Source of the DNA: Minisyncoccota bacterium
GTDB lineage: Bacteria > Patescibacteriota > Minisyncoccia > Minisyncoccales > CG1-02-41-26
DNA: 64,000 bases
Direction of reading: 5' to 3'
Assembly: GCA_028718785.1 (NCBI GenBank)
Contig: JAQULB010000004.1
Coordinates: forward strand, 2,525 to 66,524
Under the pieces are notes generated by a model. It was not told the origin of the DNA. It did no database searches and worked only from the letters and a program-made list of their open reading frames with translations. This document shows, in pieces, positions 5,845 to 56,449 of the stretch. A program made the translations under genes and the position numbers. How positions within the stretch are numbered: position 1 is the stretch's first letter; each line of letters opens with the position of its first letter.

Positions 5845-6462
5845 ATGCCTGAACAAGGAATACAAAAAAACCCAATAGAGAAGAAAAAGAAAACTAATGG
5901 TTGTTTAGTGGTTTTTCTTGTTATTGTCGGGGTAATTATTATCGGTGTGCTTTCTAGTAGTGGTAGTAAGAATAAAAGTGCGGAAACATCAAAGAAAGAA
6001 ATGCCAGCCGTCTCCTCTTCAATGAATCAAGTTTCAAGTGCGCCAACTTCGCAGGAAACATCAGAAAAAAAAGCTCAAACTGAAGCAAAAATGAAACAAA
6101 TAGAGAAAGAAATGGAATACAGAACAAAGATAATAAAAATTTGCCAAACAATTTTAGTGGCACAACAGGGCCTGCGTGATTTTCTACTGAAAAATCCTTT
6201 CCCCCCTTCTTGGACAGATAGTGAAACAGCAATGGTGGCAGATTGGATAAACACTATGAGAGAGAGTTATGAGGATACAAAATATATTCAAGCCCCAGAG
6301 GAATTAAAGGAACAACACCAAACTTTTTTAAGGGGAATGAAATACTACAATGACGGCATAGAGGAGCTTGTAAAAGGGTTAGCTCTTTCCGACTCCTCTT
6401 TGATTGAGCAAGCGACAAAGACGATGAATAAGGGAGCGGATCTTTTAAGTGAGGTTCGTTGA
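5845..6462 (+). CDS. Hypothetical membrane-anchored protein
   Basis: 205 aa with an N-terminal TM helix (CLVVFLVIVGVIIIGVL), then a low-complexity linker and a helical domain. Confidence 0.5.
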   Translation: MPEQGIQKNPIEKKKKTNGCLVVFLVIVGVIIIGVLSSSGSKNKSAETSKKEMPAVSSSMNQVSSAPTSQETSEKKAQTEAKMKQIEKEMEYRTKIIKICQTILVAQQGLRDFLLKNPFPPSWTDSETAMVADWINTMRESYEDTKYIQAPEELKEQHQTFLRGMKYYNDGIEELVKGLALSDSSLIEQATKTMNKGADLLSEVR

Positions 6463-7470: not shown

Positions 7471-8982
7471 ATGACAAAAATATTTCAGAAAACATATTTT
7501 TATGTTTCGCTTATTAGTTGTTTAGCTCTTTTGTTTTGTCTTGCGCCAAAGATTACCGAGGCCGCTTCTTTGAACTTCGCGCTCAATCCCTATCAAGGTG
7601 AAATTAGACCGGGCGGAGCAATTTTAATTGGAACAAACCCAATTTTTGATACCAATGAAGCCACTATTGAGGCCTGGATTAACCCGAAAAGCTATCCAAC
7701 GGGTATTGGCGAAGATGAAGGGCGAACTATTTTATGGAATGGCGATGGCACAGGAGGACACGATCCTTATTGGATTTTGTTAAATACCAGTGGGCGGTTA
7801 GAGGCCAGAGTTGACTATGACTCGCCTTACCAACAGCATATTTTCGTTTCCTCTGACCCCATAGAGCTGAACACTTGGCACCACTTTGCTTTAGTTATTG
7901 GGGCAGTTTCAACGGACTTATACATTGATGGCGTAAAACAGCCCGGAACATTCCTAAATGGCGGTCCAGCTTGCAAAGGCACAAACTATTTAGCTGTGGG
8001 GCGAAGTATGTGGCACTGGAATCCTTATGAGGGTTTAATAGACGAAATGAGAATTTGGAAAGTAGCCAGAACAGTAACGGAGATTCAAAATGATAGATGG
8101 ACTGGAAGCGTATCAGGCGATAATCCAGATTTAGTTGCTTATTGGGACTATGAGCAGGGCGCTAACTCAAGCGTGCTTTACGATTTAACGCCAAACCATC
8201 TTAATGGAGGGATTCAGGGTTGCACTTGGACTAATGAAAGCGCGCCTGCTCCTCCTTGCCAGGCAGATGTCTGGTCGTGTGGTGAGTGGAATGCTTGCTC
8301 TATTTCTGGCACTCAAACAAGAACCTGCGCTAAAACTTTTGAATGTTCAACCGTAGACACCCCCTCCCCAGCAACCTCGCAGAGCTGTGTTTATACCCCA
8401 CCAACCTGTACCTCTTGGATTTATTCGGATTGGTCTGCTTGTCAGCCAAATGGCACTCAAACAAGAAGCATCGCAAGCTCTACTCCTAATGGCTGTGCTG
8501 GCGGTAATCCAGTTTTAACTCAAAATTGTATTTATACACCATCACCATGTACTGCCGATGTTTGGTCGTGCGGTGAATGGGGATTTTGCTTTGTAAATGG
8601 AAAACAAAGCCGAAATTGCACTAAAACATTTGATTGCTTAACTGCAAATACACCCTCACCAGCTACTTCGCAAAAATGTACTTATCAGAAACCCACATGT
8701 ACTGCAGACACATGGACTTGCGGTGCATGGGGAGAATGCTCGCTTTCTGGGATACAGAATCGTAGTTGCACTAAAACCTTTGACTGCCCGGATATTCAAA
8801 CAGCGCCACCGACAACCGAACAATATTGTAAGGCCCCGAATAAGCCCACAAATCAATCTTCTTCAAGTGATGAGGCTACGATAGCGCAATTAAAATCACA
8901 AATCGCAGACCTTCAGAGACAAATAATGATTTTGCTTACTCAACTAATTCAGGTATTGCAACAACAGTTAGGCCACCGATAA
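7471..8982 (+). CDS. Secreted LamG/concanavalin-A-like lectin-domain protein with four Cys/Trp-rich thrombospondin-type-1-like repeats
   Basis: It has a signal peptide and a LamG-type region (EAWINPKSYP..DEMRIWKVARTVTEIQ). Four ~48-aa repeats follow the pattern C..D.W.CG.W..C...G.Q.R.C.KTF.C......P, then a C-terminal coiled-coil. Confidence 0.75.
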   Translation: MTKIFQKTYFYVSLISCLALLFCLAPKITEAASLNFALNPYQGEIRPGGAILIGTNPIFDTNEATIEAWINPKSYPTGIGEDEGRTILWNGDGTGGHDPYWILLNTSGRLEARVDYDSPYQQHIFVSSDPIELNTWHHFALVIGAVSTDLYIDGVKQPGTFLNGGPACKGTNYLAVGRSMWHWNPYEGLIDEMRIWKVARTVTEIQNDRWTGSVSGDNPDLVAYWDYEQGANSSVLYDLTPNHLNGGIQGCTWTNESAPAPPCQADVWSCGEWNACSISGTQTRTCAKTFECSTVDTPSPATSQSCVYTPPTCTSWIYSDWSACQPNGTQTRSIASSTPNGCAGGNPVLTQNCIYTPSPCTADVWSCGEWGFCFVNGKQSRNCTKTFDCLTANTPSPATSQKCTYQKPTCTADTWTCGAWGECSLSGIQNRSCTKTFDCPDIQTAPPTTEQYCKAPNKPTNQSSSSDEATIAQLKSQIADLQRQIMILLTQLIQVLQQQLGHR

Positions 8983-46429: not shown

Positions 46430-49345
46430 ATGCCTCAAAACCAAAATATTGATAAATCCTTCAACAGAACTCAAGATAAACTGCCTCCTCAAAACATACC
46501 AGCGGAAAAATCGCTTTTGGGCTGTTTGATGATTGACCAAGACGCTATTTATAAAGTAGCGGATTTTTTGCAAATAAAGGACTTTTACAAACCAACACAC
46601 CAAATTATTTTTGAGTCCATTATTGAGCTTTTTACCAAAAGAGAACCCGTTGATTTGTTAAGCGTTTCCTCAAAACTCTCAGAATACCAAAAGCTTGAAG
46701 AAACCGGCGGAGCCAGCTACTTAACCGATCTTATCAACACCGTTCCCACAGCCAGCAATGTTTTACACTATGCCAAAATAATTCAAGACAAACGAGTTTT
46801 AAGAGATTTAATTTCTGCTGGTTATGATATTAGCAATTTAGCGCTTCAAGAAGCCGAATCCATTGATATTTTGTTAGACAAAGCAGAAAAAAGAATTTTT
46901 TCCATTGCCCAAAAATCGCTTTCTCAGTCATTCACTCATGTAAAAGATACTTTAGAAGACACTTGGAAAAGAATTGAAGAACTATCAAAACAAAAAGGCA
47001 GCTTGCGAGGCATACCCACTGGATTTCGCGATTTAGACAATATGTTAGCTGGTTTACAGCGCTCTGATTTGGTTATTTTAGCTGCAAGGCCAAGTTTGGG
47101 AAAATGCGTGAGCAAAGACACGGAAATTGTTATGTCAAATCCGGGTGGCGTTTGCACAATAGAAGAGCTTGTTAATAACCAAAAAAGAGAGGTTTTGGGA
47201 TTAGATAGCAATCTAAAAGTTAAACCTCAGTTAGTAAGTGATTTTATCAACAATGGCGTCCAGCCAGTTTTTCGGGTTGAAACTGCGTCTGGTAGAGAAA
47301 TAGAAACCACCATTACTCACCCCTTTTTAACTATTAATGGCTGGACGCCATTAGAAAATATTCGTATCGGCGTAAAAGTAGCTGTCCCCAGAATTATTCC
47401 AGTATTTGGGTGTCAAACTATGTCTGATTGGAAAATTAAATGTCTATCTTATTTTATTGCCGAAGGTGGACTAACTAATAGAAGTCCAAGGTTCACCAGC
47501 GCAAATCCAAAAATTCTGCAGGATTTTGCAGAAAGCGTTAAAATGTTTCCAAATATTAAAATCTCTATAAATAAATCCTCTACTAATAAAAATGAAAAGA
47601 ATATAACCTATCAAGTTGCAAGGGCCAATAAAACGCCTGTTTTGGCTAAAAAAGTATTTGGAGAAAAAATAAAAAAATTAGCAAGAAAATCTAATTTAAC
47701 TCAAAAAGAGCTGGCGAAAAAAACAAGTTTATGCTATCAAAGTATTTCTTATTTTTTGAATGGACATCGTTTGCCGTCAAAAACCCATTTTGCGGTTATT
47801 TTAAACCAGCTTAAAACAACTCAAAACGAAAGAGAAAACTTGACCAACGAATATCAAACACTCTTAAATGAAAATTCTGTCACTAAATGGCTGGAAAGTT
47901 TAGGGTTAATGGGTAAGCTTGCCACTGAAAAATTTATTCCTCGCGAAGTGTTTCACTTAAAGAAAAAAGATTTGTCTTTATTTTTCAATCATCTTTTTGC
48001 TTGCGATGGAAGTTTTTGGCAGAGCAAAAAAGACCTAAAGTACCACCTTTCTTACGCATCAAGCTCAAAAAAAATGATTAGGCAAATTCAACATTTGCTC
48101 TTACGTTTTGGAATAATGGGCACTGTGCGAGAAAAAAGAATCAAAATTAATAACAAAATAAAAATAGCTTACGAATTAGAGGCCCATAATGCTCAAAACC
48201 TTTTAAAATTTATTGATGAGATTGGAATCTATGGAAAAGAAATCAAGCTTCAAAAGGCAAAAAACGAAATCATTAAAACAAAGATCGGTTGGACTCAAGA
48301 CACGCTACCGATTGAAGTATGGAATAAAATAAAAAAGCTTAAAGGAAATAAAAGCTGGGCATCTATTTATACGGCTATGGGTTTGCCACATACACACAAT
48401 ATCCACGCCTTTAAACGCTCTCCCCGCAGAGAAACAATTGAAAGGTTAGCAAAAGCTTTAAACTCTCAGGAATTAAAAGACATTGCCCAAAGCGATATTT
48501 ACTGGGATAGAATAGTTGGTATAAAATATTTGGGTAAAAAACAAGTTTACGATTTAACAGTGCCAAAAATCCACAATTTTATAGCCAATGATTTCTTTGT
48601 TCATAATTCGGCTTTGGCTGTTGATATTGCTAAAAATGTGGCTTGTAAATATAAAATGCCAGTTGGCATATTTAGCTTGGAAATGAGCAAAGACCAAATT
48701 GTTGACCGTTTAATCTCCGCTCAAGCTGATGTTGATTTATGGCGTTTGCGAACTGGAAAACTATCCGACCAAGGCCCAAACAATGATTTTGAAAGAATCC
48801 AAAAAGCCATGGCCGAATTAGCTGACGCCCCTCTCTATATTGACGATGTTTCAAGCAGTAATGTTATTCAAATGCGAGCTATGGCCAGGCGATTAGCAAT
48901 GGACAAAGGCTTGGGGCTTTTAATCATTGACTATTTGCAGTTAATGGAGGGTAGAGGCAACACTGATAATGTTGTTCAGCAAGTTAGCGAAAACTCAAGA
49001 GCTTTAAAATCAATCGCTAAAGAATTAAACATACCAGTTTTGGTTTTAAGCCAGCTTTCCAGAGCTGTGGAGCATAGAATGCCACCCGTGCCTCGTCTTT
49101 CGGACTTGCGTGATTCGGGCGCGGTCGAGCAGGACGCCGATGTGGTTATGTTTATTTACAGGGAGGATCGCTATAAGCCCAACACAGAAAGAAAAAATGT
49201 GGCTGAAATTATCATTGCCAAGCACCGAAACGGGCCAGTTGGCAAAGTTGAACTATATTTTGATGAAACCCGTGTTACATTCCGGGATATGGAAAAAGGC
49301 GCCTACCAAGGAGCTGACACTGAAGAGGAAGAAAGCATTATTTAA
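46430..49345 (+). CDS. dnaB: Replicative DNA helicase DnaB, interrupted by an intein in the P-loop
   Basis: The N-terminal domain has PQNIPAEKSLLGCL. The P-loop junction is AARPSLGK|intein|SALAVDIAKN. SLEMS, IDYLQL, LSQLSR and DLRDSGAVEQDADVV follow. Confidence 0.93.
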   Translation: MPQNQNIDKSFNRTQDKLPPQNIPAEKSLLGCLMIDQDAIYKVADFLQIKDFYKPTHQIIFESIIELFTKREPVDLLSVSSKLSEYQKLEETGGASYLTDLINTVPTASNVLHYAKIIQDKRVLRDLISAGYDISNLALQEAESIDILLDKAEKRIFSIAQKSLSQSFTHVKDTLEDTWKRIEELSKQKGSLRGIPTGFRDLDNMLAGLQRSDLVILAARPSLGKCVSKDTEIVMSNPGGVCTIEELVNNQKREVLGLDSNLKVKPQLVSDFINNGVQPVFRVETASGREIETTITHPFLTINGWTPLENIRIGVKVAVPRIIPVFGCQTMSDWKIKCLSYFIAEGGLTNRSPRFTSANPKILQDFAESVKMFPNIKISINKSSTNKNEKNITYQVARANKTPVLAKKVFGEKIKKLARKSNLTQKELAKKTSLCYQSISYFLNGHRLPSKTHFAVILNQLKTTQNERENLTNEYQTLLNENSVTKWLESLGLMGKLATEKFIPREVFHLKKKDLSLFFNHLFACDGSFWQSKKDLKYHLSYASSSKKMIRQIQHLLLRFGIMGTVREKRIKINNKIKIAYELEAHNAQNLLKFIDEIGIYGKEIKLQKAKNEIIKTKIGWTQDTLPIEVWNKIKKLKGNKSWASIYTAMGLPHTHNIHAFKRSPRRETIERLAKALNSQELKDIAQSDIYWDRIVGIKYLGKKQVYDLTVPKIHNFIANDFFVHNSALAVDIAKNVACKYKMPVGIFSLEMSKDQIVDRLISAQADVDLWRLRTGKLSDQGPNNDFERIQKAMAELADAPLYIDDVSSSNVIQMRAMARRLAMDKGLGLLIIDYLQLMEGRGNTDNVVQQVSENSRALKSIAKELNIPVLVLSQLSRAVEHRMPPVPRLSDLRDSGAVEQDADVVMFIYREDRYKPNTERKNVAEIIIAKHRNGPVGKVELYFDETRVTFRDMEKGAYQGADTEEEESII
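47105..48607 (+). other. Intein (501 aa) with a LAGLIDADG endonuclease and an embedded XRE-type HTH
   Basis: The junctions are GK|CVSKDTEIV and NFIANDFFVHN|S. The LAGLIDADG motifs are LSYFIAEGG and LFACDGSF. The HTH is LTQKELAKKTSLCYQSISYFLNGHRLPS. Both boundaries were checked at nucleotide level. Confidence 0.88.
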
Positions 49346-50229: not shown

Positions 50230-50251
50230 TCCACATTCCTTAATCAAAAAC

Positions 50252-50280
50252 GGCTCCCTCATGGGAGCTCGTTTTATTTT
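50252..50280 (+). terminator. Intrinsic terminator of the recR unit
   Basis: GCTCCC-tcat-GGGAGC followed by TCGTTTTATTTT. Confidence 0.6.
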
Positions 50281-50316
50281 ACTTTATTTATTTCGTCTAA
50301 AATTACTTTTTATAAC

Positions 50317-50362
50317 AAAAAACTACACTTTCTGTCCCATAGTTCAAAAAGTGTAGTTTTTT
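50317..50362. terminator. Bidirectional terminator-like hairpin downstream of rplU
   Basis: AAAAAACTACACTT-[18 nt]-AAGTGTAGTTTTTT. Confidence 0.5.
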
Positions 50363-50393
50363 GTTTGAAATGTTCTATGTTCTATGGCCTATG

Positions 50394-50729
50394 TTATGCG
50401 ACTTTCGTAATTTCCACCTCGGTAAATTGCTGGCGGTGGCCTTTTTTCACGCTCACCCGCTTTTTTGCTTTATACCTCAAAGCAATAACCTTGTCGGCCT
50501 TGCCTTGGTTTAAAACCTTGCCAACTACCTTGACGCCTTCAACCAATGGAGCGCCAATTACTACTTGGCTCGCCGAAGCTTTAGCGGAGGTGGCGCCTTC
50601 CTTAACGGTAAGCAAAACTTGGTCAAAAATAACTTCTTTGCCAACCTCAGCTTCTAATTTCTCTATTTTTAATTTTTGGCCGGGAGATACAACATATTGT
50701 TTGCCTCCGGTTTTTATAACTGCTAACAT
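50394..50729 (-). CDS. rplU: 50S ribosomal protein L21
   Basis: MLAVIKTGGKQYVVSPGQKLKIEKL is the canonical L21 N-terminus. Confidence 0.92.
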   Translation of the reverse strand: MLAVIKTGGKQYVVSPGQKLKIEKLEAEVGKEVIFDQVLLTVKEGATSAKASASQVVIGAPLVEGVKVVGKVLNQGKADKVIALRYKAKKRVSVKKGHRQQFTEVEITKVA

Positions 50730-51977: not shown

Positions 51978-52053
51978 TGGCGGCCTTACGGGGAATCGAA
52001 CCCCGGTTACTTGATTGAGAATCAAGTGTCCTGGGCCACTAGACGATAAGGCC
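51978..52053 (-). tRNA. tRNA-Glu (anticodon CUC), CCA encoded
   Basis: Folded by hand. The acceptor is GGCCUUA/UAAGGCC, with the D region GUCUAGUGG...AGGAC. The anticodon arm is CUUGA-UUCUCAA-UCAAG, the T arm GGGGUUCGAUUCCCC, and the 3' end is GCCA. Confidence 0.9.
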
Positions 52054-52112
52054 GTCGGGTAAGCCACTAAACTTATTCTATCAAAAATATCAATCAAAAC
52101 AAGTAAAAACGG

Positions 52113-52156
52113 TGGGTTGGTTGATGCCTCTCTGGACATCTTTAACCTCCACCGTT
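52113..52156. terminator. Bidirectional terminator-like hairpin upstream of tRNA-Glu
   Basis: AAAACGGTGGGTT...AACCTCCACCGTTTTTT, with T-runs on both strands. Confidence 0.45.
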
Positions 52157-52173
52157 TTTTCGCAATCGCCACA

Positions 52174-52353
52174 CTAATCAGCAATTTGCGAATTTTCATC
52201 AAGGGGATAAATTTTTGGTTCACTCATAACTCCCCTTGTCTTTACTTTAATTTTTCGCCCACAATTTGGGCACTCTTCCTCCTTGCTTGAATGTGGATCA
52301 ATATAAACCCTAAAAGTATACTCCTTACAATCGCAAGGATATTCTATAGGCAT
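52174..52353 (-). CDS. Possible 59-aa zinc-ribbon protein
   Basis: Hand-found ORF MPIEYPCDCKEYTFRVYIDPHSSKEEECPNCGRKIKV... (CxC...CxxC). It falls one codon below the track cutoff. Confidence 0.4.
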   Translation of the reverse strand: MPIEYPCDCKEYTFRVYIDPHSSKEEECPNCGRKIKVKTRGVMSEPKIYPLDENSQIAD

Positions 52354-52431
52354 AACTAACCCCCTATATGTTATTACCTCACCAAAATTTTCTTAACCCT
52401 CAGCTTTTTTTAACCTCCTTTTGTTAATTAT

Positions 52432-52614
52432 CTATAAACCAATCGCTTCTGCGACAACATATTTACCCCCCACATAAACATAAGGCACACCATTTCTGAA
52501 TACCACATCAGCATTAGTCAATTGAATAGTCGTGGTATTGGAAGTGGTTTCCCCAACGCTACTCCCTTTATTTTTTTTCTTTCTTCTATTTTTTTTCTTT
52601 CTCTTTGATCCCAT
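52432..52614 (-). CDS. Hypothetical small protein with a highly basic N-terminus
   Basis: MGSKRKKKNRRKKKNKG..., with AAGGAG about 12 nt upstream. It is the first ORF after leader 1. Confidence 0.45.
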   Translation of the reverse strand: MGSKRKKKNRRKKKNKGSSVGETTSNTTTIQLTNADVVFRNGVPYVYVGGKYVVAEAIGL

Positions 52615-52679
52615 TCTTTAAATACTCCTTTTTTAATTTATTCTTAGTTAAATAAAATTTTTAAACAACTGCAAAAGCT

Positions 52680-52839
52680 AAAGCCCCCTTCCATAAATTA
52701 CGGAAGGGGGCTGGTTTGAAGTTTTAAAATTTAATTATTTTCAAATCTCAAACTAACTTCCTTCCCGGATTGGGAGCAAATAGTCCATTTAGTGGTGTAT
52801 TGGAAATTAGCTTGAGTCAACATTTTCTTATTTATTTAC
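52680..52839 (-). ncRNA. Candidate structured leader / sRNA 1 (homologous to leader 2)
   Basis: The 5' arm ACTCAAGCTAATTTCC (52817-52802) pairs with the 3' arm GGAAGTTAGTTTGAGAT (52761-52745), with G-U wobbles only on the minus strand. It ends in the terminator AGCCCCCTTCC-9nt-GGAAGGGGGCT (52680-52710). Confidence 0.4.
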
Positions 52840-52845
52840 ATTTCT

Positions 52846-52873
52846 ATAATAGCAAAATAAAAATTGTTGTCAA
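52846..52873 (-). promoter_or_regulatory. Near-consensus promoter TTGACA-16-TATTAT
   Basis: On the minus strand, the -35 is at 52873-52868, inside the upstream terminator stem, and the -10 is at 52851-52846. Confidence 0.5.
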
Positions 52874-52903
52874 TGGCAAAAGTGAAAACTTTTGCCATTG
52901 ACA
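52868..52903 (-). terminator. Intrinsic terminator of module 2
   Basis: TGTCAATGGCAAAAGT-gaaa-ACTTTTGCCATTGACA has a 16-bp perfect stem. A T-rich run follows on the minus strand. Confidence 0.7.
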
Positions 52904-52908
52904 TATTA

Positions 52909-53085
52909 CTATTTCGGCTCTTTCGCTGTTTTACCAACAACAACTACTCCACCTTCGCCAGTCGGAATTTTATCATCATATACTCCTTCAGGCGCTCCGA
53001 ATTCGTCTTTACCACGACTTTTTGCAATAATTTTATTTCTTTCACGAAGAAATTTTTCTGTATATAACATCCTTTTTTCAAACAT
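52909..53085 (-). CDS. Possible 58-aa protein
   Basis: Hand-found ORF MFEKRMLYTEKFLRERNKIIAKSRGKDEFGAPEGVYDDKIPTGEGGVVVVGKTAKEPK. GGGAGG lies 5 nt upstream and a terminator follows. Confidence 0.45.
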   Translation of the reverse strand: MFEKRMLYTEKFLRERNKIIAKSRGKDEFGAPEGVYDDKIPTGEGGVVVVGKTAKEPK

Positions 53086-53121
53086 TTTATCCTCCCATAA
53101 AATTATTTTAACAGTTAGCGA

Positions 53122-53265
53122 TCATTGAGCTAACACTTTAGAAATCTCCTCGTATAAATGGGGGCTGTTAGAGATAAAAAACACGAAACAACCACCCAAA
53201 ATAGTTGCTCTATAATTTACCTTATCTTTTTCCAGTATATCTTTTACCTGCCGAAAAACATGCAT
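53122..53265 (-). CDS. Possible 47-58-aa protein
   Basis: Hand-found ORF MHVFRQVKDILEKDKVNYRATILGGCFVFFISNSPHLYEEISKVLAQ. Upstream TTG/GTG starts extending to 53301 are possible. Confidence 0.35.
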   Translation of the reverse strand: MHVFRQVKDILEKDKVNYRATILGGCFVFFISNSPHLYEEISKVLAQ

Positions 53266-53320
53266 CTGTTGTTTTTCAACCAATAAAACCAAACTAATCA
53301 CCTCGCTTTTAATGTGCTAC

Positions 53321-53496
53321 AGAAACTAAAACCAGCCCTCTCAAAACGAGAGAAGCTGGTGTAAATTTTCTAAGATTTTCTTTTAATTCTTTTTATTTAG
53401 AAAACTCAAACTAACCTCCCTCAATGGGGCATAAAAGAAATAAAAGAAAAAGAAATTTCTTTTTGAGTTAGTTTGAATTAAACTTTTCATAATTAT
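53321..53496 (-). ncRNA. Candidate structured leader / sRNA 2 (homologous to leader 1)
   Basis: The 5' arm CAAACTAACTC (53475-53465) pairs with the 3' arm GAGGTTAGTTTGAG (53418-53405). It ends in the terminator CCAGCCCTCTC-aaaac-GAGAGAAGCTGG (53332-53359), with a T-run on the minus strand. Confidence 0.4.
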
Positions 53497-53502
53497 ATTT
53501 GA

Positions 53503-53531
53503 AGTATAAAAAATTACCCCCACAATGTCAA
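53503..53531 (-). promoter_or_regulatory. Near-consensus promoter TTGACA-17-TATACT
   Basis: On the minus strand, the -35 is at 53531-53526 and the -10 at 53508-53503. Confidence 0.5.
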
Positions 53532-53585
53532 GAGCTTCGTATTCAACATGCTAAAACCTATCAAAGCTTTCTAAAAAATACTCTT

Positions 53586-53666
53586 AAAAAGCGTATCAAA
53601 GTTGGCCGACTCGCCTTGCTGGAGCCTTCGGCGTAGCACAGGTCGGCACGGATTGATACGCTTTTT
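53586..53666. repeat. GC-rich ~80-bp long-hairpin element, copy X (inverted relative to copy Y)
   Basis: AAAAAGCGTATCAAAGTTGGCCGAC...GTCGGCACGGATTGATACGCTTTTT. By my alignment its reverse complement differs from 54592-54671 at 5 positions. Confidence 0.7.
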
Positions 53667-53779
53667 AACTTTTAACAAAATAAATTGCGTAATTTTATTA
53701 ATTGTTAAAACTGCGTATAAAAAAATCCCGTAAAAATTTTAACTAGCCATTAGCAAAAAAGTTAAAATTTTTTACAGAA

Positions 53780-53826
53780 TAAAAGAAAAAAGCGGGGGCT
53801 TTTACAATGTGGTGGTTGTAAAAGCC
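53780..53826 (-). terminator. Intrinsic terminator of the 158-aa gene
   Basis: GGCTTTTACAA-8nt-TTGTAAAAGCC is followed on the minus strand by CCCGCTTTTTTCTTTT. Confidence 0.65.
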
Positions 53827-53860
53827 ACGCCTTTGAGATGTTGCCTCTCCAGCTCCCGCT

Positions 53861-54337
53861 TTATATTGTATATCTAAGGCCAATTAGTTTTTTCTCGCCC
53901 TCAACTTTTATGGCCTCAAATATCGCTTTTTGCTCTTGGACGCAAACTTTTCCTATCACCGAAACCCCCTCAAAGCAGATAGCCCAAATGCCATCTTGGG
54001 GGCTATTAACATAAAGGGTTGCTGGTGATACATGAAATATTGTTTGGCCTGCTTTTCTCACAACAGCCTCTACAATATCTCCTGTATCCTCTGTTTCTTC
54101 CACTTCCACCCTTAGTCCAATTAAATTTCGTTGACCATCAACCATAATGATTTCAAATACAATCATTTCCTGGTTTATTTGGCTAACATAGATTTTTCCG
54201 GCTACTGAAACGCCCTCAAAAGAGATTTTCCAAACATCCTCCCCCATACTAACAACGCAAAGATTTGGATTCTCGGAAGATGTGTGGAATATTCTTGCGC
54301 CCGCCCGTCTCATAAGAACTGCTATAATATTTTTCAT
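53861..54337 (-). CDS. Hypothetical protein made of two tandem ~75-aa homologous domains
   Basis: AAGGAG lies upstream. The two halves align: IIAVLMRRAGARIFH..VWKISFEGVSVAGKIYV...LIGLRVEV against IVEAVVRKAGQTIFH..IWAICFEGVSVIGKVCV...LIGLRYTI. Confidence 0.6.
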   Translation of the reverse strand: MKNIIAVLMRRAGARIFHTSSENPNLCVVSMGEDVWKISFEGVSVAGKIYVSQINQEMIVFEIIMVDGQRNLIGLRVEVEETEDTGDIVEAVVRKAGQTIFHVSPATLYVNSPQDGIWAICFEGVSVIGKVCVQEQKAIFEAIKVEGEKKLIGLRYTI

Positions 54338-54399
54338 TTCTTATCTCCTTATACAATAGTTTTAGCGGATGTCGGACTTCCGCTACTTTTTTTAATGAA

Positions 54400-54555
54400 C
54401 GTAAATAAAAACCTCCCCATTGCTGGGGAGGCCTAAAGTTTTTAGTAATCTCTCTATTTTATAACACTAAAAACCTTCCCAGCTTGGGGCTCCGATAACA
54501 AAACCAACAATAAACCAAAAAGATTTTTTTGTGTTATTTCACTTTCCATAATTAT
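54400..54555 (-). ncRNA. Candidate structured leader / sRNA 3
   Basis: The 5' arm AAATAACACAAAAA (54539-54526) pairs with the 3' arm TTTTTAGTGTTATAAAA (54473-54457). It ends in CCTCCCCA-ttgc-TGGGGAGG (54412-54431), with TTTTTATTT on the minus strand. Confidence 0.35.
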
Positions 54556-54561
54556 AGCTTG

Positions 54562-54589
54562 ATTATAACCAAACAAAAAAATATGTCAA
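54562..54589 (-). promoter_or_regulatory. Consensus promoter TTGACA-16-TATAAT
   Basis: On the minus strand, the -35 is at 54589-54584 and the -10 at 54567-54562. Confidence 0.55.
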
Positions 54590-54591
54590 AT

Positions 54592-54671
54592 AAAAAGCGT
54601 GTCAATCCGTGCCGACCTGCGCTACGCCGGAGGCTCCAGCAAGGCGAATCGGCCAACTTTGATACGTTTTT
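54592..54671. repeat. GC-rich ~80-bp long-hairpin element, copy Y
   Basis: AAAAAGCGTGTCAATCCGTGCCGACCTGCGCTACGCCGGAGGCTCCAGCAAGGCGAATCGGCCAACTTTGATACGTTTTT. It lies about 100 bp downstream of the ftsI stop and could act as a bidirectional terminator. Confidence 0.7.
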
Positions 54672-54775
54672 TTAAAAATAAAATAAGTTGAAGTGTTGAA
54701 ATTAAAATTTGAAAAAAATATAACAACCTACATCCTTGGACTTTGGAGTTAAGTTTTGGAAAAAAGCTGGGCATC

Positions 54776-56449
54776 CTATTTTGTGGGAGGGATTTGTTTT
54801 AAATCAATTATGTATTTTGCCAATTTGCCAAAAATTGGAGCGGCGCAAGAGCTGGCCGCGTCTGATTGCTTTGGATTATCCATACGGATTAATATCGCAA
54901 ACTTTGGCGAAGTGGCTGGAGCAAAACCCACAAAACTTTGGATTGTTCTATCTTCATAATATCCTCCATTTGGGCTTGGTATTTGGGCTGTTCCAGTTTT
55001 TCCAGCCACTAAATAGTCAGGCACTTTTGCTCGCCGACCTCCCCCATTTTCCACCACTGAAACCATCATTGCCGACAATTCAATGGCTGTGTTTTTGGAA
55101 ATAACTTGCTTTGGAGAAGTTGTATTTGGTTGCTCAACCTCGCCTTTTGAAGAAATAATCTTTTCAACCACATAGGGTTTATTCATCTTCCCCTCATTGG
55201 CAATGGCGCTTATGGCTTGTAACATTTGTAAAGAAGTTATTTGAATCCCTTGCCCAAAACTAGCCACAGCAAAATCTCTTGGATAACCATTTTTTAAGGC
55301 CTGATTGGTTGAATATGTTTCACCAGCCACATCAATTCCTGTTTTTTCAAAAAAACCAAACTTTTGAATATACTTTAAAAGCCCTGTTTTACCTAATTTT
55401 TGTTCCACAAAAACCATTCCTGTATTTATTGAGTTTTCTAAAACCCCAACCATTGTTTGCTCTCCCCAGGCCTTTTTGGCGAAATTATAAATTGAAGGCC
55501 CTCCAACATTAGCTGAACCACTGTCAAAAAAAGTTGTTTCTGGAGTAATTAATTTTTCTTCAAGCCCCCCTGCCATTACCACTGGCTTAAAAACAGAACC
55601 GGGCTCAAACAATCCCTGTATGCAAGGGTTGGAAAAAACAGAAACATTTTTTTCTTGGCCATACTGGTTTGGATCATAAGTTGGCCAAACAGCCATTGCC
55701 AAAATTTTTCCAGTTGAGGGCTCTTCCACCATAATCTGCCCCGAATCCATTTGCCATTCATTAAAGGCCTCTTCTAATAATTTTTGAGCGTAATACTGAA
55801 TATTATAATCAATTGTTAATTGTAAATCTTTACCTAATGTTTGAGTTATTTCATTTCCTGTTTTAAAAACAGAAGATATAATTGAAAAAGTTGTATTTTT
55901 GCCTTTTAAAAAATCCTCGCCCTTGAGAGTGTTATTGTAAAAAGATTCTATGCCATATTGCCCATTTCCTTCACCGTTTACAAAACCCACCAATTGACTG
56001 GCAAATTTTTTGTTTGGGTAAACTCGATTAAAAATTTCATCTATATAAACCCCTTTTAGATTTTCTTGTTTAAACGCCTTGTATTGCTCGGTTGTTAGTT
56101 CTTTTTTAATTGTTTCCCCTTTATCAATTTGAAGGGTTATGGTTTCAATTGTATCCCCCAAAATTTCCGATAACTTTTGAATGGTTTGTTCTTTTTCTTC
56201 TTGCGGTATCTTGCTTGGAGAGATATATACTATTGGACTAATTACGGTTTGAGCCAAAATTGTTTTTCCATCGTTGAAAAAAATTGTTCCTCTTTGAGAA
56301 TTCGTTTCTTCAACTGGAATTTGCTGACCCATAGCCAAAGCGCCATAATACTCCCCTTTTACAACTTGTAAATAAAAAAGCTTTCCCAAAAGTAAAGCTC
56401 CAAAAAGAAGAAAAAAAATTAAATAAACATTAGCGGGTATTTGTTTCAT
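54776..56449 (-). CDS. ftsI: Peptidoglycan D,D-transpeptidase FtsI / PBP2-type
   Basis: It has an N-terminal TM helix and dimerisation domain. The transpeptidase motifs are SVFKP (SxxK), SIN (SxN) and KTGTA. Confidence 0.9.
   Translation of the reverse strand: MKQIPANVYLIFFLLFGALLLGKLFYLQVVKGEYYGALAMGQQIPVEETNSQRGTIFFNDGKTILAQTVISPIVYISPSKIPQEEKEQTIQKLSEILGDTIETITLQIDKGETIKKELTTEQYKAFKQENLKGVYIDEIFNRVYPNKKFASQLVGFVNGEGNGQYGIESFYNNTLKGEDFLKGKNTTFSIISSVFKTGNEITQTLGKDLQLTIDYNIQYYAQKLLEEAFNEWQMDSGQIMVEEPSTGKILAMAVWPTYDPNQYGQEKNVSVFSNPCIQGLFEPGSVFKPVVMAGGLEEKLITPETTFFDSGSANVGGPSIYNFAKKAWGEQTMVGVLENSINTGMVFVEQKLGKTGLLKYIQKFGFFEKTGIDVAGETYSTNQALKNGYPRDFAVASFGQGIQITSLQMLQAISAIANEGKMNKPYVVEKIISSKGEVEQPNTTSPKQVISKNTAIELSAMMVSVVENGGGRRAKVPDYLVAGKTGTAQIPSPNGGYYEDRTIQSFVGFAPATSPKFAILIRMDNPKQSDAASSCAAPIFGKLAKYIIDLKQIPPTK

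Follow-up and report, generated by a model that had tools for sequence, protein, structure and literature searches.

In the transcription attenuators of enterobacteria, a promoter-proximal short open reading frame (ORF) carries a run of codons for a single amino acid. In mycobacteria, leaderless short ORFs with polycysteine runs act as attenuators (Canestrari et al., bioRxiv 10.1101/834739). Here we describe three tandem leaders, apparently of a related kind, in a 64-kb stretch of DNA (the window) from a metagenome-assembled genome (MAG) of Candidatus Pacebacteria (Patescibacteria). They belong to three minus-strand modules between ftsI and a tRNA-Glu gene, module 3 being nearest to ftsI and followed by modules 2 and 1. 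Each module consists of a near-consensus promoter, a structured leader of about 150 nucleotides (nt; 140-170 nt in the individual cases) with an intrinsic terminator, one or more orphan ORFs, referred to here as cargo, and a second terminator. This plan had been put forward in a first-pass annotation made from the sequence alone and was borne out by promoter, terminator and fold scans. We propose that the leaders are paralogous, ribosome-mediated transcription attenuators in which translation of a short ORF would serve as the sensor, a reading to which we assign a probability of about 0.6.

A motif of the form CCCA..GGGARG..TTAGT occurs three times in the window, once in each leader, with no occurrence expected by chance, and its presence in all three implies that leader 3 has the same plan as leaders 1 and 2. 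A covariance model (R1) built from 14 relatives of leader 2 only, and searched in the window and in the loci already collected, recovered leader 3 (52 bits, E = 3e-8) and leader 1 (47.7 bits, E = 3e-7) as well; no other credible copy was found in the 64-kb window. (A weak match at 50246-50397 represented only rplU terminators.) Motif and model matches thus confirm the homology of leaders 1 and 2 recognized in the first-pass annotation and extend the family to leader 3, which had not been included. Judged by these similarities, the three leaders are paralogous and form one family.

About 40 related leaders were assembled from about 20 related Patescibacteria MAGs and metagenome contigs (loci with three-digit L numbers below). 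A scan of a genome collection for FtsI yielded three relatives with 68-75% identity. A degenerate scan of metagenomes for the core of leaders 1 and 2 yielded 15 loci, 14 of which are genuine, the other (L027) being a chance match inside a coding region. Three further loci (L029, L030, L031) were reached independently through distant homologues of a 70-amino-acid (aa) cargo domain, and in all three a leader-3-type element lies directly upstream of the domain gene. The usual order in relatives is ftsI, leader 3, leader 2, leader 1, tRNA-Glu, rmuC. The leaders are nearly invariant at the nucleotide level, more so than FtsI, whereas the downstream genes differ between genomes, a contrast suggestive of leaders that serve as portable cassettes for the control of expression. 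Decay of the region into pseudogene debris is excluded by this conservation. Scans of viral contigs with both cores detected no leader core and hence gave no sign of a phage origin. At gathering thresholds Rfam recognized only tRNA-Glu in the region; at E <= 10, sub-threshold matches to Phe_leader, PyrG_leader and PyrR appeared. The best non-tRNA match was the enterobacterial Phe_leader (RF01859), a model with a threshold of 55 bits, which scored 36.8 bits (E = 8.5e-4) on leader 3 and 26.7 bits on leader 2. On the evidence of these comparisons, the leaders are best read as a new RNA family absent from Rfam.

All leaders share a layout in which a long outer stem, P1, surrounds a variable interior and is followed by a spacer and the terminator. 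P1 is formed by segments 1 and 2, and the terminator by segments 3 and 4. The long-range arms fold as anticipated, with z-scores of -6.1, -3.5 and -4.0 for the three leaders, and the argument that certain G-U pairs make sense only on the minus strand is supported. In the leader-2 family, 88.7% of the cells in P1 and terminator are paired and seven pairs have changed on both sides (0 of 500 shuffles; slid controls 30-54%); in the leader-3 family, 94.6% are paired, with seven compensatory pairs. These counts were obtained from plain MAFFT alignments, one of which (A2) contains four rows with misaligned 5' arms that lower the P1 figure. A separate curated block alignment, analysed in Python, likewise supports both helices.

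Central to our argument is a third helix, the antiterminator, in which, in all three leaders, the conserved purine core of segment 2 can pair with segment 3, the 5' half of the terminator. In the leader-2 family (columns 83-95 with 162-174) it is 89.4% paired, and four pairs (13 cells) have changed on both sides; in the leader-3 family it is 92.1% paired with three compensatory pairs. Slid helices reached only 35-60% and 35-57%, respectively, and none of 500 shuffles attained the percentage paired or the covariation score in either family. Core and terminator change in concert, as illustrated by the replacement of GAGGGAGG:CUUCUCUC with AAAGGAGG:CCCCCUUU in L024 and, for leader 3, of GCUGGGAAGG:CCUCCCCAGC with GCGGGAAGG:UCUUCCCGC in L013; in L018, 12 of 12 pairs are formed (GUGAAGGAAGUU:GACUUCCUUCAC). 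Duplexes of cores with their cognate terminators have a mean energy of -16.0 kcal/mol as compared with -12.1 kcal/mol for non-cognate combinations (permutation p = 5e-5 for 19 types, 0.004 within leader 2). The antiterminators (-11 to -25 kcal/mol) are about as stable as the terminators (-10 to -26 kcal/mol). Leaders 1 and 2 possess a further hairpin, P4, between segments 2 and 3, which would be stacked on the antiterminator helix. The 5' strand of P4 shares sequence with the 3' arm of P1, so that P1 plus terminator and antiterminator plus P4 are mutually exclusive; in leader 2, the P4 loop holds the stop codon of the short ORF. Homologous leaders of other genomes, proposed earlier as a source of covariation, thus show compensatory changes in P1, terminator and antiterminator alike.

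A covarying antiterminator that competes with the terminator sets a regulated attenuator apart from the plain terminator of a small RNA (sRNA), and it strengthens the attenuator interpretation that the first-pass annotation had given to a terminator between promoter and ORFs. That the leaders are terminator/antiterminator attenuators is, in our view, very probable. The same helix speaks against a model in which each leader is an independent, highly expressed gene for an sRNA or small protein and the downstream ORFs are reached by unregulated leak-through. Such a model would account for the strong promoter and strong terminator that delimit each unit of 140-170 nt and for the conserved peptides encoded by the short ORFs described below. 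However, a competing antiterminator has no role in a plain sRNA, and it is equally unexplained by the earlier suggestion of abundant sRNAs with read-through. Moreover, a consensus scan found no promoter-like site with at least 10 of 12 matches between any leader terminator and its cargo, the sequence 3' of the terminator is also conserved, and the C-terminus of the peptide is dispensable. We consider this model improbable.

The proposed sensor, not reported previously, is an ATG-started short ORF of 20-38 codons that none of the roughly 40 leaders examined lacks. Each of the 28 distinct leaders of the initial set has such an ORF of 27-36 codons, which reads through the conserved core, and this also holds for the later additions with the exception of a leader-3 variant in L031, whose ORF keeps the leucine run and stops just before segment 2. 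The ATG is located 6-22 nt after the -10 hexamer (12-13 nt in most leaders, 6 nt in three), which translates into a predicted 5' untranslated region (UTR) of about 5 nt or less. Leader-3 peptides contain leucine runs such as GLLLVLL, GLLLGLLL and GLLLLVVLL, and their leucine codons change at the third position only. Leader-2 peptides contain aromatic runs instead (FFFFYFFY, FYFWFFFF, FQFFYFWFYGF, WFYFYFF), in which 99 of 108 residues (92%) are F, Y or W; purines occupy codon position 2 of the corresponding U-rich tract in 30 of 46 cases (p = 1e-5, with the reservation that the sequences are not independent). In one leader-2 subgroup (L013, L020, L023) the invariant core is read in another frame, yet the ORF is still open. 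Together with the early stop in L031, this implies that what is maintained is the run and an open frame, and not the C-terminal peptide; the core, read in two frames or excluded by truncation, is thus conserved as RNA. The constancy of the ATG-to-core distance modulo 3 was not used as coding evidence because it is forced by stop codons in the other frames of the core.

Two unusual leaders deserve mention. A fourth leader type of the same family (L018, 4550-4745; 40.8 bits) is located upstream of a gene for a 66-aa CxxC-rich protein, and its short ORF (MLNIFKNLVIGEAKFSIIVCWWNPLIGKGVGLSCLK) contains two adjacent Trp codons. In L030 (~1750-1810), a leader-3-type element directly follows an apparent tRNA 3' end (GGTTCGAATC...) and has no recognizable promoter; in that genome, processing of the tRNA might generate the near-leaderless 5' end.

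The geometry of these elements, with helix 1:2 lying inside the ORF and 2:3 and 3:4 following, is by analogy that of a classical attenuator. From the start of the short ORF to the 5' arm of P1 there are 2-15 nt, the run occupies the interval separating the two arms and precedes segment 2 by 8-30 nt, and the stop codon usually lies 10-19 nt beyond P1, which implies that a terminating ribosome would mask segment 2 and/or the 5' strand of P4. We propose that each module is transcribed from its strong, sigma-70-type promoter and that the transcript would start about 5 nt before the AUG of a short ORF of 30-35 codons. If no ribosome is present, or if it runs fast to the stop codon, P1 would form or the ribosome itself would cover segment 2; with segment 2 tied up, the terminator would form and transcription would end about 150 nt from its start. 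A ribosome stalled on the control codons, that is, the Leu run of leader 3 or the Phe/Tyr/Trp run of leader 2, would leave segment 2 (the purine core plus UUAG) free to pair with the emerging 5' half of the terminator, and P4 would extend this helix apically in leaders 1 and 2. The terminator would then be blocked, and RNA polymerase would read into the cargo genes. Starvation for leucine (leader 3) or aromatic amino acids (leader 2) would be predicted to cause read-through. In leader 1, the conserved segment QYT(T)KWTIC is a candidate stall site. Whether supplies of charged tRNA-Leu and of aromatic aminoacyl-tRNA are indeed the signals is, in our estimate, an even bet.

Several observations weigh against control by a translating ribosome. 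Promoters and short-ORF translation are predictions made from sequence. The short ORFs lack a Shine-Dalgarno sequence whereas the cargo genes have strong ones, and the short-ORF 5' UTR, about 5 nt long, qualifies neither as canonical nor clearly as leaderless. Leader-1 peptides share the segment QYT(T)KWTI(C/Y)S and have no amino-acid run. In leader 2, the Phe codons (TTC TTT TTC TTT) are nearly devoid of synonymous change; the Phe tract can pair with AAAAAGAAA and GAGGGAGG, and RNAalifold indeed pairs the U-tract with the GAGGGAGG core, so that conservation of the run may in part be at the RNA level. The cargo of the window is not recognizable as amino-acid biosynthesis, charging or transport functions, the usual targets of attenuators. 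Covariation was observed within one narrow lineage with few independent events, and the shuffle controls ignore relatedness. Finally, when folded at full length, about two-thirds of 29 leaders have P1 plus terminator as their minimum-energy structure, and with the 5' part masked the terminator still is the minimum in about two-thirds and the antiterminator in only nine. A purely thermodynamic switch is rejected on these grounds; any switch must be kinetic, as in classical attenuators.

Some of these points would be met by an attenuator controlled by a metabolite or protein, which would set the switch by acting on the core and its mini-hairpin (CCCA..GGGARG) or on P1 and would leave the short ORF an incidental or modulatory role. 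The alternative helices are supported whatever the sensor, and such control would fit a core that is invariant at the nucleotide level though read in two frames, Phe codons with little synonymous change, short ORFs devoid of a Shine-Dalgarno sequence, and a leader 1 without codon run. However, the region enclosed by P1 is wholly different in leaders 1, 2 and 3 and the fourth type and offers no common aptamer. Rfam yielded no match to a riboswitch class or protein-binding leader, and none to a T-box leader even at E <= 10. Moreover, the position of the ATG, the open frame, the third-position variation of the Leu codons and the F/Y/W composition would be left unexplained. We regard ligand or protein control as unlikely and prefer translation of the short ORF as the sensor. 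Of the two possibilities named in the first-pass annotation, riboswitch or attenuator, the latter has gained ground and the former has become weaker because the leader interior differs among paralogues whereas a short ORF, with amino-acid runs in leaders 2 and 3, is conserved in every copy.

The features of the region are compiled in Table 1. Sites matching the promoter consensus in at least 11 of 12 positions number eight in the 64 kb (4.2 +/- 2.3 in shuffles), and three of them are found here, on one strand and within 1.7 kb. Terminator-like sites amount to 10 in the region as compared with 3.8 +/- 2.4 in shuffles, and the terminator scan and a reading of the sequence located the terminators where they had been placed before.

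Table 1. Sequence features of the three modules in the order of minus-strand transcription (positions refer to the window).
Feature	Position	Strand	Remarks
Inverted-repeat arm A	54591-54672	-	A-tract, GC-rich hairpin, U-tract; between ftsI stop and module-3 promoter; fold -31.4 kcal/mol
Module-3 promoter TTGACA-16-TATAAT	54589-54562	-	12/12 consensus match; counterpart promoter in homologues
Leader-3 short ORF, MESEITQKNLFGLLLVLLSEPQAGKVFSVIK then stop	54549-54454	-	ATG 12 nt after -10; intact in all 10-13 leader-3 homologues
Leader-3 segment 1 (P1 5' arm)	54535-54522	-	P1 91% paired, compensatory changes
Leader-3 putative Leu-rich control codons, LFGLLLVLL	54522-54496	-	Leu codons in homologues vary only between TTA and TTG
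Leader-3 segment 2	54484-54463	-	Core AGCTGGGAAGGTTT (54484-54471) pairs with terminator 5' half; overlaps P1 3' arm (54476-54463)
Leader-3 terminator	54434-54409	-	Segment 3 (54434-54421), segment 4, U-tract; 97% paired, 5 compensatory pairs
158-aa cargo protein	54337-53861	-	Tandem duplication of ~70-aa domain, lineage-specific
Terminator of 158-aa gene	53826-53797	-	Terminator scan
Inverted-repeat arm B	53586-53667	-	Hairpin with flanking A and U tracts, upstream of module-2 promoter; fold -37.7 kcal/mol, z -5.6
Module-2 promoter TTGACA-17-TATACT	53531-53503	-	11/12 match
Leader-2 short ORF, MKSLIQTNSKRNFFFFYFFYAPLREVSLSFLNKKN then stop	53490-53383	-	Intact in all leader-2 homologues
Leader-2 segment 1 (P1 5' arm)	53479-53466	-	Fold and alignment
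Leader-2 putative aromatic control codons, FFFFYFFY	53454-53431	-	U-tract also able to pair with GAGGGAGG core
Leader-2 segment 2	53424-53403	-	Core TTGAGGGAGGTTAG (53424-53411), antiterminator 5' strand; overlaps P1 3' arm (53416-53403)
Leader-2 hairpin P4, GAGTTTTCTAA ... TTAGAAAATTT	53407-53363	-	Apical part of antiterminator; 97.9% paired
Leader-2 terminator	53359-53332	-	Segment 3, CCAGCTTCTCTC (53359-53348); 96.8% paired, 5 compensatory pairs
56-aa cargo ORF	53292-53122	-	TTG start preceded by GAGGTG; homologues downstream of leader 2 in L009, L015/L016, L021
58-aa cargo ORF	53085-52909	-	DEFGAPxxxY motif; ORF list
Module-2 terminator	52903-52868	-	Perfect 16-bp stem; terminator and inverted-repeat scans
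Module-1 promoter TTGACA-16-TATTAT	52873-52846	-	11/12 match; TG extension
Leader-1 short ORF, MLTQANFQYTTKWTICSQSGKEVSLRFENN then stop	52823-52731	-	Conserved segment FQYTTKWTIC (52805-52776)
Leader-1 segment 1 (P1 5' arm)	52818-52805	-	Fold and alignment
Leader-1 segment 2	52766-52745	-	Core GGGAAGGAAGTTAG (52766-52753) and P1 3' arm
Leader-1 terminator	52714-52682	-	14-bp stem and U-rich tail; segment 3, 52714-52701
60-aa basic cargo protein	52614-52432	-	No family match
59-aa CxC...CxxC zinc-ribbon-like cargo protein	52353-52174	-	Only sub-threshold zinc-ribbon matches
Module-1 closing hairpin	52103-52160	-	Long, imperfect, with U-run, before tRNA-Glu; read from sequence

The -35 hexamer TTGACA of the module-1 promoter sits in the 3' arm of the palindromic module-2 terminator (52868-52903), an arrangement that is kept, with covarying stems, in L006 (~8070-8110), L009 (~5880-5917) and L016 (~2600-2640); covarying equivalents of the hairpin closing module 1 are found in L006 and L009. 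The two 82-nt arms of an inverted repeat (I1; arms 94% complementary) enclose the whole of module 3, each being located just upstream of a -35 hexamer. They look like bidirectional terminators or insulators of the repetitive extragenic palindromic (REP) type, and arm A is likely to be the terminator or an insulator of ftsI; the repeat may also allow inversion of module 3. Shorter palindromic versions are present at both sites in L002, where the ftsI-proximal one is reversed in orientation, and no such elements are present in L006 and L009. A second -10-like hexamer (TATAAT, or TATAGT in relatives) adjoins the ATG of the short ORF downstream of the main -10 (53497-53492 and 54556-54551) and might act in sigma-dependent pausing or mark an alternative start site. 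Beyond the leader terminator, a box CA[TC]T[AGT]A, often as GYTCATTAAA, occurs at a distance of 8-17 nt in 13 of 28 leaders (1.8 expected), and behind the box, copies of leader 3 have a covarying hairpin (AGCGGA..TCCGCT in the window; 54396-54350) just before the Shine-Dalgarno sequence of the cargo. Box and hairpin could represent a processing site or a second layer of control on read-through transcripts.

The minus-strand gene order at the locus is mraZ, rsmH, an ftsL-like gene, ftsI (54776-56449), the module region, tRNA-Glu(CTC) (51978-52053) and rmuC. The first-pass annotation had described the modules as replacing the mur genes expected after ftsI. It is correct that modules follow ftsI, and a Pfam scan of the ten other large ORFs of the window revealed no mur gene. 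Replacement as a recent event is contradicted by the synteny comparison: in all relatives found the modules follow ftsI, which makes this layout a feature of the lineage and not of this genome. Elsewhere in the window we noticed a full-length LOOT RNA (Rfam RF03000; 5676-5790, plus strand; 77.2 bits with a gathering score of 46.4) and a DnaB helicase gene (46430-49345, plus strand) that is split by an intein with a LAGLIDADG homing-endonuclease domain, as it is in L006.

None of the five cargo proteins of the window has a significant match in Pfam, PHROGs or NCBIfam, in line with the earlier remark that they are unrecognizable. The 158-aa protein (NCBI PHY72_02950) has two homologues among 5.8e9 proteins, both encoded directly after ftsI, and a hidden Markov model of its ~70-aa domain detected seven clusters among 1.84e9 representatives. 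A weak match to an 834-aa protein with ten matching repeats (P0007) was discarded, its context being unrelated and free of leaders. Leader-3 cargo mostly consists of this domain, present in one copy or, as in the 158-aa protein, in two. Structure prediction, which had been suggested as a check on the small proteins, was run on the 158-aa protein with AlphaFold2 (3-sequence alignment) and gave no usable model, with a mean predicted local distance difference test score (pLDDT) of 37.7. For the first ORF of module 2, formerly placed at 53265-53122, the most likely start is TTG 53292, giving 56 aa; homologues in L009 and L015 share this N-terminus. Leader 2 is followed by the 56-aa and 58-aa pair in the window, L009 and L015, and by other small ORFs elsewhere. 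The search of 5.8e9 proteins found no homologue of the 58-aa protein. A motif D-x-(F/Y)-G-A-P-x-x-x-Y is common to many otherwise dissimilar small proteins downstream of leader 2 (window, 52909-53085; L009, 5668-5868; L015; L026; L006, 7636-7893; L024, 2295-2594).

Larger cargo is present in some relatives. In L002, leader 2 precedes genes for a GCS2-like carboxylate-amine ligase and a GATase/peptidase C26 (5084-6654); in L014 (372-3265) and L018 (855-3768), it precedes genes for proteins of 571-584 aa without assignment and for M20 peptidases. A leader with larger cargo is also found in L008 (19226-21325), and the larger unassigned proteins in relatives, which measure 310, 571 and 584 aa, have M20-family peptidases encoded behind them. 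The ligase, GATase and M20 cargo of these few relatives is the only hint of a tie to amino-acid or peptide metabolism. It could also be taken to mean that the short ORFs encode precursors of natural products or bacteriocins and that leakage through the terminator adjusts how much precursor is made relative to the products of processing and immunity genes. A small peptide gene followed by an attenuating terminator and downstream genes is typical of operons for natural products and bacteriocins. Nevertheless, most cargo consists of proteins of 56-160 aa without enzyme domains, the peptide C-terminus is frame-changed or truncated in homologues, conservation at the nucleotide level exceeds a peptide's needs, and what distinguishes the three paralogous peptides is chiefly a homopolymer-like run. 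A precursor-peptide function appears very remote to us.

The candidate phyla radiation group to which this organism belongs generally lacks amino-acid biosynthesis. If our interpretation is correct, such organisms would still monitor the supply of leucine and aromatic aminoacyl-tRNAs, and lineage-specific small proteins would be the likely output of amino-acid sensing, which would provide an entry point to their function. To our knowledge, gene regulation in candidate-phyla-radiation bacteria is almost unexplored, and full-text searching of a literature collection for leader peptides or transcription attenuation in Patescibacteria or the candidate phyla radiation retrieved nothing relevant. 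We may speculate further that the lineage possesses a modular "ribulon" in which near-leaderless short ORFs with different amino-acid specificities (for Leu, for Phe/Tyr/Trp, of a WW type, and for some further signal in the QYTKWTIC type) are mounted on a shared terminator/antiterminator chassis, that the interval between ftsI and tRNA-Glu is a hot spot where recombination at the invariant leaders swaps cargo between genomes, and that the orphan small proteins mediate a starvation or host-supply response of symbionts presumed to obtain their amino acids from a host. This wider view is doubtful, and we offer it as a tentative extension.

How, then, do the leaders compare with known systems? Like riboswitches and T-box leaders, they place a competition between terminator and antiterminator downstream of a sensor and between promoter and gene, but they have no conserved aptamer, specifier or T-box elements, the presumed sensor being a translated ORF. 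The Salmonella mgtA and mgtCBR leaders (mgtL, mgtM, mgtP; PMC3641672) resemble them in that translation of a leader short ORF picks between stem-loops, in the control of transcription of non-biosynthetic genes, and in the use of tandem attenuators. The Salmonella attenuators are arranged in tandem within one long leader of one operon, as opposed to three promoter-leader-cargo units here, and bear no sequence relation to the present leaders. With the polycysteine ORFs of mycobacteria (bioRxiv 10.1101/834739) they have in common a (nearly) leaderless sensory ORF, the remodelling of downstream mRNA by stalling, and the occurrence of several such ORFs, which in mycobacteria form a ribosome-directed regulon; here, by contrast, the output would be an intrinsic terminator and the cargo is unassigned.

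In layout, the leaders also come close to the enterobacterial attenuators (trpL, pheL, leuL, hisL, thrL and the ilv leaders). Near the promoter, leaders 3 and 2 have a short ORF with a codon run, of Leu as in leuL and Phe-rich as in pheL/pheM, respectively; the present and the enterobacterial leaders both have mutually exclusive 1:2, 2:3 and 3:4 helices that end in an intrinsic terminator, and in both the stop codon is set such that a terminating ribosome would mask segment 2. The present leaders differ in that they show no significant sequence or model similarity to these attenuators, lack a Shine-Dalgarno sequence, start their ORF about 5 nt from the predicted 5' end, and carry the control run between the arms of P1 and not inside a simple segment 1. 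They also occur as three tandem paralogues, one of which (leader 1) has no run, and have variable orphan small-protein cargo. Our verdict is that the system is real and conserved and probably represents classical leader-peptide logic in an unusual host, executed with a near-leaderless short ORF and swappable cargo.

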